This document shows, piece by piece, positions 6,553 through 62,037 of a DNA stretch of 64,000 nt. How positions within the stretch are numbered: position 1 is the stretch's first letter; every line of letters starts with the position of its first letter. The position numbers and the translations under genes were made by a program. The stretch comes from Eledone cirrhosa (lineage: Eukaryota). The notes below the pieces were generated by a model. The model worked only from the letters and a program-made list of their open reading frames with translations, did not search any database and was not told where the DNA came from. The stretch lies in assembly GCA_964016885.1 (NCBI GenBank), contig OZ024740.1, forward strand, positions 283,216,001 to 283,280,000, given 5' to 3'.

Positions 6553-7240
6553 AAAAACAAATAACGAAACGAAATTAAATTTCGCTTCGTTTGTAACTCA
6601 CTTTTGTATGACTGACGCTTAAACACTTAATTTAAAAATGTACATCCATATATGTATACTGAAATACTAGTATGCATATGAATACACACACGTATACATA
6701 TATAGATGTACCAAGTCTTTCACTGGTTACTTTACTGTGAGTATCCAGCTATTCTGTATGTAAACACACAGACATAAGCGTCAGTCATACAAAAGTGAGT
6801 TACAAACGAAGCGAAATTTAATTTCGTTTCGTTATTTGTTTTTATCGTCTCCGTTGAACCGGTACGTACTCACACTCTATGCAAATTAGTCTGCCTACTA
6901 CTAATTTTCATAGAAAAAGCATATAACGATATGTGCTTTTACGATTCTCCAGAAAGGCCGGGTAGATAGGTAAATATTGCTGATGAGTTGTAACAACAAC
7001 GAAACTAGTTCAATATTCCTTGTCTGGCTTTCTGGAGAATAGAGGAAAGGTGTTTCCTCAAAAACCAGTATGACTCTAAAAACCGGTTTGTCTGTGTGTT
7101 TACATACAGAATAGCTGGATACTCACAGTAAAGTAACCAGTGAAAGACTTGGTACATCTATATATGTATACGTGTGTGTATTCATATGCATACTAGTATT
7201 TCAGTATACATATATGGATGTACATTTTTAACTTAATTGT
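6553..7240 (+). mobile_element. Hammerhead-bearing non-coding element with two overlapping inverted repeats
   Basis: 6553-6620 is inverted at 6776-6843; ~6632-6775 is inverted at ~7089-7230; hammerhead at 6973-7017; bounded by (TA)n. Confidence 0.7.
6973..7017 (+). ncRNA. Minimal type I hammerhead ribozyme
   Basis: aatattg-CTGATGA-gttg(taacaa)caac-GAAA-ctag-tt-caatatt: 7-bp stem I, 4-bp stem II, palindromic minimal stem III, intact core. Confidence 0.85.
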
Positions 7241-7404
7241 TATATATATATATATATATATACATATATGTATAGAGACGACTTTCAGGAGTGGGCTTTA
7301 TGGTCAGGGACTCTATTGCTTCCAAGCTTGAAAACGTGCCAACAGGTCATTATGACGGCATTCTCTATGCACCTCACATATATGTATATATTACTTATTT
7401 GTAT

Positions 7405-7665
7405 AGGGAACGTTTCCACGAACCAAAGTATCGTCTTCCTATCTTCCTTCGGTTGCAACATTTTTTTAAATATTTACTTCTGCGTTCACAGATTGACTTT
7501 TTTAGTTTCAGAAGATCCCTTTAAGGGTGAAAGCAGCGATTTTTGCTTAAACTTTAATCTGTTATTTTAATAAATATTTGCTCTACACTTCTTATATATT
7601 TGATATAAATTTATCCTTATCGAACCCTCTTTGGATTTTAGTCTTCAAATTTATTATTATTACTA
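7405..7665 (+). mobile_element. Penelope-like element 3' terminal fragment (family of 13669-16233)
   Basis: Close match to ~15975-16233; a further rearranged piece lies at 6328-6460. Confidence 0.85.
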
Positions 7666-7896
7666 TATATATATATATATATGTATATATATATATATAT
7701 ATATATATATATATATATATATATATATATATATATATATATATATATATATATATATATATATATTTCTTTATTTACCATAAAGGCATTATATATATAT
7801 ATATATATATATATATATATATATAGAGAGAGAGAGAGAGAGAGAGAGAGAGGGAGGGAGAGAGAGAGAGAGAGAGAGAGAGAGAGAGAGAGAGAG

Positions 7897-8600
7897 AGAG
7901 ACGACTTTCAGGAGTGGGCTTTATGGTCAGGAACTCTATCGCTTCCAAGCTTGAAAACATGCCAACAGGCCATTATGACGGCACTCTCTATGCACCTCAC
8001 ACTGAGTAATCAACAATAAGCCACACTCACAAGTGTGTATTGCCCTACCTTTCAAGCAGATCTTACCGAAAAGAACAAGTTTTACTCTGATCTGCACAAT
8101 CTTTTACAGGACATCTCTGTTGACAACAAGTTCATAATCCTTGGGGATTTCAATGCCAGAGAGGACCTAGATTCTGTAACTTGCGAGGGAGTGCTCGGGG
8201 GATATGGTGTTGGTAAATGAAATGACAATTGGTGCTTGCTGTTGGAGTTTGTGCAGAGTATTAACCTTTCACAATGAACACCAATCTACCAGCAGAAGGA
8301 CAGTTTGAAAAGACCCTGGATACAGGCTCTTTACAAACACTGGCTCATCATTGACTATATCTTAGTGCGACTGTGTGACCTGAAAGACGTTTTGCATACT
8401 AGAGTGATGCCTAGTGCGAAATGTTACACTGACTATGGTCTTGTAATCTGTAAACTAAGCTCCACTTTAAACCAAAATCAAAGAATGGAGGGCCCCCTCC
8501 AGGAATAAGTCCAAGGTTAGCAATTTCCAGTCAGCTGACGTGAAAGCTGACTTCCAGGCAGTCCTTCAATTGAGGCCTGAAGATCAATCATTCCCACAGA
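7897..8600 (+). pseudogene. RTE-clade LINE APE endonuclease fossil
   Basis: Translations GVGFMVR, VYCPT..KNKFYSDL, IILGDFNAR, GVG, WLIIDYILVR with stops and frameshifts. Confidence 0.8.
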
Positions 8601-9735
8601 CCCCTTGCTAACACGCCACCCATGCGTCCTTTCATTCAATTAGAAGCTAGATAACCACATATAGGTTCTAATTGAATGGCTATATAGTTTCTATTTGAAT
8701 AAAAAGTAATGTGGGTGGCGTGTGGGAGTAATGGTTACACATTGTTCGGCAAACGAAAAATGTCGGTTCGTTTCCCATGTCCGTCAGCGCTCATTCTTTG
8801 TTTACCATTCAGACGTTTTTTTTTTGTTTTAATCCCAATTAACAGACTAATGATATTTAGTCAAATACGGCATAAACATATGTTACTACCTAATTTTCAC
8901 ATTCGCAAGCCGTTTCTAAAACAAAGCCTGCTTTGTGTCTCCCTATATATATACATATCACAAGTAAATTTGTTTTTGAAACATCGAGCGAATTTGAAAA
9001 TAGAAATAGAAGTTTTCGCCATATTTATTTTTTACTAAAGGAATGGAAAAACATGAGTATTGACGTCATTTTCGTCATGTGCGCCACTACTCATCTTTTT
9101 TCCATTTTTAGAGGGTTATAAGCCCCACTATCAGGCTAAAATTTCTTAAGTCAAGAATTCGGCGACAGTCTCTCTCTTTCTCTCTCTCTCTTTCTCTCTC
9201 TCTCTCTCTCTCTCTCTCTCTCTCTCTCTCTCTCTCTCTCTCTCTCTCTCTCAATATATATATAATAAGAACAAAGTGGAGGTGTTACATAGGAGATTTA
9301 TTGCTCAATCCTAGTTAAAAATGTTTCACAATCAGCTGGCTCTTTATCTCCACCATCCCCAACCTTGCGGAGATCATTGCCTCATTTACACAGGGGGGGG
9401 GGAGGGGGCTGACCAGCAAGCTTTGTCGGTTCTGTGTCTGTGAAAGTGTGGAGATCCTCAAGCTACGCGGGGGGCGGGCAATCAACTCTAGGTTCGAGAT
9501 ACTGAGTAATTGTATACAGTGAAAAACCCATCTGTTCGCCCATCTAGCAGGTGGGTGCACCGCAAGGAGCCGCTATCTTAGTTAGTGAGCTACCGACCCT
9601 GTCCTGCCACGGTAGTCCCACTACTCGTCCCAATGCACCAACTTTTACTTGCATTTTTTTCTGAAGGTATTTTTATGATGTGTATATAAGTATATATATG
9701 TATTTGTAAGTTTATATACATATATATATATATAT

Positions 9736-10290
9736 ATGAAAGACGCAAAATAAAAAAATTATAAAAATTAACTTACTTACTAAAATTGTATATATATGTT
9801 GGTAGATATACTAATTCTTTATAATTATCTCCAAATTATTTTGTTGAGCAAAAATTTGCCAAAACTACTACTGTCTTATTAACACCCCCACATCTCACTG
9901 ATTAACCTCGATGTCACGTGAATGATTCTTTTGAATTTGCCACCGACCAAGTAGGCAGTGATTTTTTCAATGTCTTGGAATTTAGTCCTCGCTTGCTTTT
10001 TTCCATCCACTGAATTATTTTTGTATAAGTTCCCTGTGTCCACGCATCGCCTGGGAACTTAGCTGAGAATTGACTTCCTGATGATGAAAGGTATTCTCCA
10101 TGTTCCATTCGGAAACCATGTTTATTCCCTATCAGAAACTAATTAGTTGGAGTGACATTTTAGTAAGTAAGTTAATTTTTATAATTTTCTTATTTTACGT
10201 CTTTCATATAATTTTTCTGCATCCCTTTGCATTGAACCACAAAGTTACTAAGACAAAACCTACATATTTTCTAGCATAGGTATGCATCTG
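9736..10290 (+). mobile_element. Hammerhead-bearing non-coding element with inverted 5' arm
   Basis: 9736-9786 is inverted at 10158-10210; hammerhead at 10073-10153 (acttc-CTGATGA-tgaaagg..cctatca-GAAA-ctaattagt-t-ggagt). Confidence 0.7.
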
Positions 10291-60541: not shown

Positions 60542-60561
60542 ATATATATATATATATATAT

Positions 60562-60820
60562 AATAATAATAATAGGATATGTGTTCCTACACATCTCGGG
60601 AACAGTTTTGGATAGCGCTAGTTCGTAATTTAAATTCAAGAATTTTATATTCTTCGAATGAAAAGAACCTTCTGACGAGAATCTTTCTTTGCAACGAAGG
60701 CCGTATGATCTTCGTTTATTTTTGAGATTCGAAACCGATTCTGTAAAGGTAACTATAGTAGGTAAAGTCAATTTTTTAAAATTTATTTTGAAACTTTTTC
60801 ATTATTTGCTAAACCTTGAT
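60562..60820 (+). mobile_element. Truncated copy of the 487-nt hammerhead monomer with an inverted 5' piece
   Basis: 60591-60820 matches 61809-62037; aataataggatatgtgttccta is the reverse complement of ~61645-61666; hammerhead acctt-CTGACGA-gaatct..agattc-GAAA-ccgattctg-ta-aaggt at 60667-60750. Confidence 0.82.
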
Positions 60821-60896
60821 TATATATATATATATATATATATATATATATATATATATATATATATATATATATATATATATATATATATATATT

Positions 60897-61461
60897 TAGG
60901 TTTGTTGGTTCACCACTGGATAGAACTGGTCATTCCGTATGGTCATCTCGATATAATATTATGGAGAGTACTCAACGTAATGCAACTCACCCGTCTTCGT
61001 TTGTGTAGTTGGTGGTGCGAGTACGGAGTTAATTATTATAAAATAACAGGAGGCTGGACTGGTGTAAATCCTTGAAAGGTTTATTATACCATAATCATTT
61101 CAATGACCGGGTTCAATATGAATCCGGTGATATCATCAGGTATTCGAAATATAACAAAGGAATATAACAGATAAAATCCATGGGGCTGAAAATCAGAGAC
61201 AAGAGGACGACCTACTATTTAGCAGCTTCTACCTCAGTCGGCCCTCGAGGGCGCCCCGACTAAGGTAGAAGCTGCTAAATAGTCGGTCGTCCTCTTGTCT
61301 CTGATTTTCAGCCGCATGGATTTTATCTGTTATATTCTTTGTTATATTTCGAATACCTGATGTCATCACCGGATTCATATTGAACCCGGTCATTGAAATG
61401 ATCATGGTATAATAAACATTTCAAGGATTTACACCAGTCAATCCTCCTGTTATTTTATAAT
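60897..61461 (-). mobile_element. Fold-back hammerhead element, tail on the left
   Basis: Arms 61035-61241 / ~61256-61461; minus-strand atac-CTGATGA-..accgg..ccggt..-GAAA at 61086-61143. Confidence 0.82.
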
Positions 61462-61489
61462 ATATATACATATATACATATATAGTATA

Positions 61490-62037
61490 AGTAAAGTTAA
61501 TTTTTTTAAATTTATTTTGAAACTTTTTCATTATTTGCTAAACCTTGATTATATATGTTCTGGCTCGTTAATTTATTAACCTGCCATTGAACCACTTTGG
61601 CATATGGTTGGACAATACATGTGTCCCTTAGCGCCTTGTGCGTCTAGGAACACATATCCTATTATTACTATTATCTCCTCTATGTTGAGAAAAAAATTTG
61701 GTCGTTCCGACTACTGCTAGCGATAGTGGTGGCCGATTGACCTACCTCCCTCTGCCTCTATCTTTACTTTCGGCCCTTGAAAAAATTGATTCCACTTCAT
61801 TTACTCTCATCTCGGGAACAGTTTTGTATAGCGCTAGTTCGTAATTTAAATTCAAGAATTTTATATTCTTCGAATGAAAAGAACCTTCTAACGAGAATCT
61901 TTCTTTGCAACGAAGGCCGTATGGTCTCCGTTTATTTTTGAGATTCGAAACCGATTCGGTAAAGGTAACTATAGTAAGTAAAGTTAATTTTTTAAAATTT
62001 ATTTTGAAACTTTTTCATTATTTGCTAAACCTTGATT
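61490..62037 (+). mobile_element. Retrozyme-like 487-nt monomer with ~60-nt terminal direct repeats and one hammerhead
   Basis: agtaaagttaatt...aaccttgatt at 61490-61550 and 61977-62037; hammerhead 61883-61966 (core CTAACGA, stem III ccg-att-cgg, GUA site). Confidence 0.82.

Follow-up and report, generated by a model that had tools for sequence, protein, structure and literature searches.

The 64,000-nt stretch of the Eledone cirrhosa genome analysed here (the window; assembly GCA_964016885.1 of 3.0 Gb, contig OZ024740.1, G000:C1:283216001-283280000) contains hammerhead ribozyme motifs of many families, which very probably belong to a population driven by Penelope-like elements, with stumps of coding elements standing beside non-coding passengers. 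We consider it likely that the genome carries more than 100,000 such hammerheads, at the 3′ ends of elements of the Hydra clade of Penelope-like elements (Craig et al. 2021, including Hydra-1_Obim from Octopus bimaculoides; PMC8557442) and in non-coding units copied in trans, and that one group of these units, family N, has a hammerhead in S-G-C (SGC) order that is predicted to cut its own RNA. A more far-reaching proposal from the sequences has about an even chance of being right: the N motif would be an active SGC hammerhead with an architecture of its own, doing the job of the type I motif in circular retrozyme RNAs copied by Hydra proteins, while the top Hydra family would have lost the canonical site. 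Coding ends, non-coding units and the Penelope footprint are of a known kind, present here as a dense case.

A strict descriptor for type I hammerheads (exact CTGANGA and GAAA, stem I of at least 4 and stem II of at least 3 pairs, a stem III or a palindrome, and U-H) found 9 perfect sites in the window and none in any of 110 dinucleotide shuffles, 80 of them scanned with this version and 30 with a second that returned the identical 9 sites. Families A, B, C, D, F, G, I and J have CUGANGA, GAAA, U-H and stems I-III, with their ends in stem I. Among 174 distinct motifs, selected without any demand for pairing in stems I or II, positions 1-5 of stem I were paired in 86-97%. Stem covariation across the type I families was present as well: 14 class representatives averaged 4.7 of 5 stem I pairs, versus 2.8 with swapped partners (maximum 4.2 in 2000 swaps). 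As stem I pairing beats the swaps in motifs chosen without a pairing demand, it is not an artefact of the descriptor.

The first-pass annotation of the window had listed 15 hammerhead sites, with pairing maintained between differing stems. The pairing was borne out, as was the palindromic nature of stem III, and 13 of the 15 sites are hammerheads or copies of hammerhead families. Only 6 of the 12 sites listed as perfect, however, pass the strict test (6973, 10073, 16719, 43077, 57025 and 60331). Four others (10603 on the minus strand, 41217, 60667 and 61086 on the minus strand) fail by a stem mismatch but have an exact core and belong to multi-copy families, with CTGANGA in 38/40 copies examined for the family behind 10603 and 41217, 42/46 for that behind 60667 and 35/39 for that behind 61086. 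The remaining two are not whole ribozymes: compared with family H, the site at 59072 (minus strand) lacks about 40 nt, stem III/I among them, and that at 24745 (minus strand) is a degenerate minimal motif covered by none of 39 other matches. Two of the three variants described as having one mismatch, at 12523 and 61883, are decayed single copies from canonical families; CCGATGA at 11897, by contrast, is family-wide. Overlooked were sites at 42857, 56847, 60146 and 41083 (all minus strand) and 61353 (plus strand), three CAGAAGA motifs and three motifs in SGC order.

The site at 24745 (motif E) was rejected as a family of its own, being a motif without homologues whose matches reflect the start of a neighbouring transposon. 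It lies directly behind the start of an abundant old element (24814-24860) that reads like the N-terminus of a mariner transposase. Motifs E and H resemble the Penelope hammerheads of PMC4209133, with an extra base after A9, GAAACGTC and no stem III loop; unlike those, most motifs described here keep a palindromic or true stem III, and stem I of H is broken by a run of C in the copies examined. Solo or opposite-strand hammerheads from truncated Penelope elements were noted in the same paper.

Across 59 fixed-position 10-kb stretches of the genome, 33 strict sites were found, a density of 56 per Mb (bootstrap 31-86), which extrapolates to about 1.7 × 10^5 per genome (bootstrap 0.9-2.6 × 10^5). 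The window lies about 2.5-fold above this average, with P of about 0.05 for at least 9 sites in 64 kb. Unusual density is thus a feature of the genome and not of the window specifically. Exact patterns counted genome-wide, each paired with a reversed-pattern control, gave 77,478 matches against 18 for the TATATA type and 36,001 against 0 for the CTAG type; for comparison, about 120,000 hammerhead motifs are reported for axolotl and more than 6,000 for Acropora millepora (PMC7229834). Rfam detects hardly any of these hammerheads: its single hammerhead match in the window, HH9 at 6962-7033, scored 38.6 bits, below the gathering score of 52 (among the best 150 of 289 matches), and 6 further loci gave no match at gathering score. 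Rfam matches resembling microRNAs, on repeats and palindromes, were set aside as chance-level and under gathering scores. The random sample also contained hammerhead families absent from the window (L363:2800, L364:6221, L366:3137, L368:7815, L385:459, L396:142 and L062:7773), and the number of families is therefore well above the 13 seen in the window.

To place the families, the top 8-30 genomic matches of each were fetched as loci (numbered L), and 31 of these were extended. Families D, G and K are the 3′ ends of distinct coding Hydra-clade elements: in independent loci, a Hydra endonuclease is followed colinearly by the hammerhead in 4/4 extended loci for each of D and G, and an open reading frame (ORF) in 2/8 loci for K. 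The same arrangement in 1/3 loci indicates that family F is probably such an end too. Locus L102 has a hammerhead motif of the CGATCG type together with a Hydra ORF. The Hydra endonucleases in the fetched loci form at least 9 divergent lineages, 23-64% identical to each other. In 1/4 extended loci, family H lies 1.4 kb behind an endonuclease with Neptune-type motifs (a CX2-5CxxC finger and a CCHH GIY-YIG domain), in one degenerate locus, L347, where no reverse transcriptase was recovered. A reading of H as a Hydra end with a 3-kb untranslated region (UTR) was rejected, as the ORF in question has a hammerhead of its own 1 kb downstream. An open 869-aa frame of a second Penelope-like clade (DKS, C-terminal YIG) was observed at L351:2660-5266 and L352:2569-5175 (both minus strand), inserted into a Hydra 3′ UTR within a duplicated region.

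The window itself contains part of one such element, family L. Its ORF (14113-15180) corresponds to the 3′ half of a 713-aa ORF in L029, at 92% identity, in line with the first-pass description of a Penelope-like reverse transcriptase and endonuclease fragment and of a Penelope-driven population. Among 85,588 first-look candidates, 114 copies were scored, and these are 91-93% identical. The L029 protein has RWR at 41, DKT at 119, CNCRNRADC at 568, YIG at 602, CDLC at 666 and CKH at 694, and the first three motifs (the third being the CxCX5C linker) are kept in 116-119 of 120 homologues. By eye, its endonuclease lacks CCHH, with one Cys before YIG, versus CxxC and HH in the Neptune-type fragment. 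Pfam gave no match for either the window ORF or the 713-aa ORF; an Atlas search returned eukaryotic clusters, one with GIY-YIG in 48% of members, which serves as a lead only. RWR, DKT, CxCX5C, YIG, CxxC and CxH are marks of the Hydra clade, whose members have a single ORF with RWR (RWK motif), DKT, the CxCX5C linker and a C-terminal YIG endonuclease with CxxC and CxH (PMC8557442), and by these marks family L would be a Hydra-clade element. Insertion into (TA)n, a pseudo-long terminal repeat (pLTR), an inverted 5′ copy and a tail are all present, and the 5′-truncated window copy, framed by its 3′ pLTR (15728-16146) and inverted copy (13665-14084), matches the layout in the figure 2 legend of that paper. 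The clade likewise shares the (TA)n target, the inverted 5′ copy and tail, and a type I hammerhead often with U-U at the base of stem II. Unlike in the published Hydra clade, at least 9 divergent lineages occur in one genome in tens of thousands of copies, with 3′ UTRs that measure about 0.7-1.9 kb, tails about 90 nt long and two families fixed at a changed U4. The 3′ UTR of family L has a 140-bp internal duplication (13818-14094, 15728-15993), and D and J have short internal repeats.

In the pLTR of family L, the three hammerhead stems surround CAGAAGA in place of CTGAAGA. None of 43 family L copies in loci L021-L050 matches a pattern with the canonical core, and an exact 28-mer occurs genome-wide 19,250 times with A (U4A) and 76 times with T, with 0 for the reversed control. 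At a control site two bases away, 191 changes were found, 31 of 100 listed being to T, which leads one to expect about 59 A-to-T changes; the 76 canonical copies, close to this rate, look like ordinary later mutation. In contigs of 4 runs aligned to 15994-16150, no letter other than this one was listed at core position 4; depth is low and contigs are few in the two runs from other organisms, and nothing is concluded from this. Family K lacks the canonical U at core position 4 as well: of 322 exact matches, the first 100 include 87 with CCGATGA (U4C), a change independent of U4A. Both U17 and a U-U pair at the stem II base recur often in the published Hydra table, where all hammerhead rows have CTGA and none U4A. 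The variants named in the section 8 text of PMC3088659 do not include U4A, and no U4A family was found in the literature searched, a search that left most subscription journals outside. By analogy with core mutants in general (PMC3088659), the U4A motif is rather probably inactive or strongly slowed, and its fixation suggests that cleavage is dispensable or attenuated in family L.

Families A, B, C, I and J differ from these coding ends. The first four are tandem monomers with one type I hammerhead each, as in non-LTR retrozymes, with units of about 466 (A; 464-469 genome-wide), 529 (B), 438 (C) and 483 nt (I), an overall range of 435-530 nt; the unit of J measures 2.06 kb and is also non-coding. 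No Penelope ORF in the extended loci belongs to any of the five. Accordingly, the claim that the motifs mark non-autonomous families held for A, B, C, I and J but not for D, G and K, which are ends of coding elements, nor probably for F and H, and the claim that the families are all unrelated did not hold, since the end of a third family is 77-82% similar to those of F and of G. Like animal non-LTR retrozymes (PMC7229834; 10.64898/2026.07.22.740005), the units are low-GC non-coding tandem monomers with one type I hammerhead each, a palindromic stem III and co-occurring Penelope-like elements. Unlike the published examples, monomers here span 435-640 nt (one of 2.06 kb). A candidate role of B as the pLTR of a Hydra ORF was rejected: the three loci are one duplicated region, with B in a microsatellite of an older UTR. 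Just past their ribozymes, B and I share TAGTAAGTAAGT-like letters (10154-10185 and 61967-62000), which we take to resemble a splice donor consensus; Penelope pLTRs are known to hold introns.

Non-coding units and Hydra families have a common insertion footprint. Families of both kinds have two fixed 3′ ends into (TA)n, at distances from the cut site of +25/+115 (L), +54/+150 (G), +48/+139 (F), +57/+142 (B), +74/+187 (I), +55/+195 (J), +229/+297 (A) and +66/+105-115 (N). Two such ends match what is expected from Poseidon, an element for which a two-site tail with two internal priming sites has been shown biochemically (PMC11167929). Inverted 5′ copies are found in 33-62% of loci of the non-coding families (A 6/11, B 12/25, C 18/29, I 13/28, J 10/30), in 40-61% of those of the Hydra families D (12/30), G (17/30) and F (17/28), in 1/8 for K, and in 0/25 for the Neptune-type family H, an internal negative control. 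Short tandem spacing sets the non-coding units apart (A 7/11, B 11/25, C 14/29 and I 11/28, versus D 0/30, G 0/30 and F 2/28). The common footprint points to Hydra proteins as the mobilisers, and probably these are the partner that copies the non-coding passengers. PMC7229834 proposed, and 10.64898/2026.07.22.740005 argued, that Penelope elements gave rise to animal retrozymes or are used by them; here the link consists of an insertion footprint with a negative control (H, 0/25) and not, as published, of pLTR homology.

Two other readings were weighed against these data. According to the first, all motifs would be unrelated non-autonomous retrozyme families moved by the Penelope ORF in the window. 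Family L is indeed young and abundant, and A, B, C, I, J and N are non-coding with a Penelope footprint, but D, G and K, and probably F and H, derive from coding elements, in contradiction to this reading for the ORF-linked families, and many other Hydra lineages could be the partner, which makes it highly improbable. Mobilisation by the window's own ORF specifically, as the first-pass annotation had supposed, would be one option among many: at least 9 divergent Hydra endonucleases occur in the fetched loci. The second reading denies that the short tandem units are mobile RNAs and sees them as satellites, the product of local expansion of Penelope ends through unequal crossover. Long arrays do exist (22 monomers fill one 10-kb stretch, and elsewhere about 30 stand in a row), and 10.64898/2026.07.22.740005 discusses a satellite route. 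Against it stand scattered monomers together with partial tandems and inverted copies, which lie on many chromosomes and end in (TA)n at the fixed 3′ positions, and also the circular monomers of A and C, which fold far below mononucleotide shuffles (−153 vs −94 ± 5 and −155 vs −93 ± 7 kcal/mol), while self-pairing of B and I was modest on the same comparison. We regard local growth as a most unlikely origin of the units, although it may account for the longest arrays.

For the favoured explanation, copying by Hydra proteins, we propose that the protein would nick (TA)n and prime cDNA synthesis internally, at one or the other of two sites that follow the ribozyme, with a tandem or circular RNA as the template. 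Early stops would yield stumps of 150-400 nt, and a second round would add the inverted copy, giving rise to palindromes. In the non-coding units, the ribozyme would trim multimeric transcripts to monomers or circles, a palindromic stem III allowing it to act as dimers. In autonomous families, cleavage would be optional or slow, so that U4A and U4C cores could spread. Poseidon hammerhead mutants still insert in vitro, and cleavage of that element needed the protein (PMC11167929).

Family N departs from all of these in its hammerhead. Three CTGATGA sites in the window (54397 on the minus strand, 54946 and 56694 on the plus strand) have no GAAA downstream; the remaining hammerhead parts are found upstream. 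The order is a stem III strand with U-H, a stem I strand, a 10-nt linker, GAAA with the second stem III strand, 12-13 nt, the second stem I strand and CTGATGA, which holds all core letters in the non-circularly permuted S-G-C order. Two patterns for this motif gave 11,115 and 20,566 genomic matches, with controls of 0. In 32 distinct copies, pairing reached 97.9% in stem I, 98.8% in stem III and 96.8% in an extra 6-bp helix. Both sides had changed in 14 of 17 pairs, including 6/6 in stem I and 3/5 in stem III; the covariation score was reached by 0 of 500 shuffles, and slid controls were 30-48% paired. An earlier alignment of 18 copies gave the same picture. Since the core columns of the alignment were set by the search pattern, a homology search was added, in which the aligned parts of 39 copies, three of them 75-82% identical, had 2 changes in total at 11 core positions. 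Position 17, left free in the pattern, is A, T or C in 32/32 copies and never G. Stem II varies between subfamilies: it is GAC/GTC after one unpaired base in one (88 of the 100 listed are exact); another, minor one has GG/CC or GGC/GCC, and abundant ones, including the window copies, have G-U and G-A.

The N units are non-coding, pyrimidine-rich and 500-640 nt long, and occur as partial tandems and inverted pairs in (TA)n with the two 3′ ends. Each has one motif, at the position held by the type I motif in sibling families, and the SGC motif thus takes the type I ribozyme's place within a retrozyme-like unit. It resembles type SGC/HRIMA-1 (Eckert et al. 2023, PMC10085705) in its S-G-C order, complete core letters, length of about 70 nt, 6-bp stem I, stem III of 4-5 bp and an extra helix that uses the strand just before stem I; because its extra helix uses the 5′ strand, we file N as an SGC-order variant and not as HRIMA-1. 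The published SGC motifs come from metatranscriptomes, none from a known organism's genome (in PMC10085705, one GCS candidate is the only RNA found in such a genome), whereas N is chromosomal, with more than 20,000 copies in a retro-mobile unit. The descriptors in that paper appear to require G-C as the basal pair of stem II, a pair absent from most N copies. No genomic or animal SGC hammerhead was found in the literature searched, which included PMC13725137 and PMC6765202 and excluded most subscription journals. By eye, twister and HDV-like (hepatitis delta virus-like) folds were dropped for N, which has no AAG-type loop of the twister consensus and whose G-U pairs favour the plus strand. Among 118 metagenome loci, 1 passes the SGC descriptor, as chance would give (0-2 per 590 kb), and a tight pattern found none in viral contigs. 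The metagenome match, on the minus strand near 492 of the reversed locus L463, has stems of 9, 6 and 6 pairs, and is a single sequence in A+T-rich DNA.

In the structure that we envisage, cut site, stem I, GAAA, stem III and CUGAUGA in crossed order would form a pseudoknot, and the tether from stem I to GAAA together with the extra helix would likely make up for a short or irregular stem II. Predicted cleavage by the motif, at least in subfamilies with a complete stem II, has a somewhat better than even chance of being real.

Several points weigh against the reading of the motifs as a Hydra-copied population that includes an active SGC hammerhead. Stem II of N is paired in only 44% of cells (40% in a longer register), and none of the three window copies has more than one Watson-Crick pair in it. 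Published SGC motifs need a regular stem II and form the extra helix, which joins stems I and II, via the 3′ tail, whereas N has 2-3 or non-standard pairs and an extra helix with the strand 5′ of the cut site; it is not evident how the short linker from its extra helix to stem III would fit standard hammerhead geometry. The covariation counts sequences and not events, with about ten N subfamilies behind them, and 29 of the 39 homology matches are the queries themselves or near-identical to them. More generally, the loci are the best matches of each search and favour young copies, the shuffle controls disregard relatedness, and several single motifs lack the hammerhead shape in their minimum-energy fold. 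The apparent ORF link of B and the Hydra link of H both fell apart once inspected. No credible similarity of any monomer to a Hydra 3′ UTR was found, so that the partner is deduced from footprints alone, and only 1 of 9 frog retrozyme dimers cleaved (10.64898/2026.07.22.740005).

The low pairing of stem II also underlies a different reading of the SGC motif, as a hammerhead-derived pseudoknot that is not catalytic and signals to the Penelope protein where to bind or prime. Linker letters outside the core (TAA-GC, ATGA) are likewise conserved, in part by construction of the pattern, and the spread of the dominant autonomous family L with a changed core implies that folds can persist without a perfect active site. 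The core letters and the absence of G at position 17, however, hold across N subfamilies with differing stems, some of which have a covarying Watson-Crick stem II, and there is one motif per unit, in the same place as the sibling type I motif. We therefore consider a purely structural role doubtful, if a serious contender. It has also to be considered that a motif might act only together with its neighbour in a tandem or circular RNA, its S and C blocks joining the G block of the next copy into an ordinary type III junction. N units do stand in tandem at 500-640 nt, and Penelope hammerheads are known to work as dimers (PMC4209133). Such a junction would need the same weak stem II across 500 nt, and would leave unexplained the covarying extra helix and its nesting with a local stem III; we judge it improbable.

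If the N motif is indeed an SGC hammerhead, it offers a host and a likely function for the non-circularly permuted hammerheads, which had no known host or job, and its roughly ten covarying subfamilies, with strong and weak stem II, form a natural series for work on structure and kinetics. As Rfam had no match at gathering score in the 6 loci, surveys of animal genomes by type I-III descriptors or Rfam would miss the whole SGC class. A U4A family of at least 19,250 copies, beside canonical sisters and non-coding passengers that share its footprint, makes it testable whether Penelope elements need the hammerhead and whether they mobilise animal retrozymes.

Table 1. Hammerhead-bearing and Penelope-related features of the window.
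Feature	Position	Strand	Remarks
Family A retrozyme-like insertion	6551..7241	+	One 466-nt monomer together with an inverted 5′ piece (6551-6774), inserted in (TA)n; self-comparison
Type I hammerhead, family A	6973..7017	+	Stem III palindrome CTAG
Family L CAGAAGA hammerhead-like motif	7504..7553	+	Within solo pLTR piece 7405-7681
Type I hammerhead, family B	10073..10153	+	Non-coding tandem unit of 527-533 nt; stem III CTAATTAG
Type I hammerhead, family C	10603..10644	-	Non-coding unit of ~438 nt; stem II decayed
Hydra-type endonuclease C-terminus, inverted remnant	11748..11858	-	Adjoins family K motif; tblastn 43% identity, E 4e-6
Family K hammerhead	11898..12010	+	CCGATGA (U4C), long stem II, stem III CAATTG; Hydra-type 3′ end
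Family J hammerhead	12523..12580	+	A9 changed in this copy; inside palindrome 12414-12655
Inverted 5′ copy of family L pLTR	13665..14084	-	CAGAAGA motif at 13689-13739; self-comparison
Hydra-clade Penelope-like ORF, 3′ half	14113..15180	+	Reverse transcriptase end, thumb, CxCX5C linker, GIY-YIG-type endonuclease; 5′-truncated
Family L 3′ pLTR	15728..16146	+	CAGAAGA (U4A) hammerhead-like motif at 16072-16122
Small palindrome	16529..16597	.	5′ half of CGATCG-type hammerhead of another Hydra family; 93.5% to L102 over 124 nt
Type I hammerhead, family D	16719..16773	+	3′ end of Hydra-type element
Orphan motif E, minimal-hammerhead-like, degenerate	24745..24791	-	Unconfirmed as hammerhead
Family C palindrome	40936..41405	.	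Hammerhead 41217-41258(+); 5′-clipped copy 41083-41119(-)
Family F palindrome	42814..43182	.	Hammerheads 42857-42921(-), 43075-43139(+); probably Hydra 3′ end (one ORF-linked locus)
Family N non-coding unit	54336..54883	-	SGC-order motif 54388-54455; two stem mismatches in this copy
SGC-order motif	54888..54955	+	Predicted cut after 54902; in short inverted partner 54885-54997
Family N unit, ~570 nt	56173..56790	+	47-nt terminal redundancy; SGC-order motif 56636-56703, predicted cut after 56650
Family G palindrome	56795..57137	.	Hammerheads 56847-56908(-), 57025-57084(+); Hydra 3′ end
Family H minimal hammerhead remnant	59077..59104	-	Stem III/I deleted; probable Neptune-type 3′ end
Second family G palindrome	60097..60448	.	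Hammerheads 60146-60219(-), 60328-60398(+)
Type I hammerhead, family I	60667..60750	+	Non-coding tandem unit of 481-489 nt; true stem III of 4-5 bp
Family J palindrome	61034..61462	.	Hammerheads 61086-61143(-), 61353-61410(+); end of 2.06-kb non-coding unit
Second family I hammerhead	61883..61966	+	G5 changed in this copy

The window has a GC content of 36%, and about 15% of it is microsatellite or satellite DNA; no host genes were recognised in it, though no systematic search was made. Fragments of non-LTR retrotransposons lie at 1-2500, 4456-5418 (matching Pfam RVT_1, E 1e-9), 5690-6052 (by its motif presumably a restriction-like endonuclease), 21393-22394, 40257-40898 and 50018-51021. A 58-bp satellite (53 copies at 97%) fills 43673-46758; next to it comes a related 137-bp array (46692-47123), and strand skew is strong. 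At 26720-27323, 28475-29805 and 54036-54257 there are long palindromes or inverted repeats that lack a hammerhead core and may be foldback elements or miniature inverted-repeat transposable elements, and a dispersed repeat ends in (TAGA)n runs at 3250-3497, 24299-24659 and 31077-31407. Finally, a repeat of about 185 bp that resembles a short interspersed element has many copies (4342-4439, 6135-6317, 10354-10456, 19518-19705, 24970-25196, 28291-28480, 31647-31839, 32436-32586, 37720-37916, 38420-39465 and 55969-56172), and also occurs as a palindromic pair and as a tandem array of 197-227 bp.

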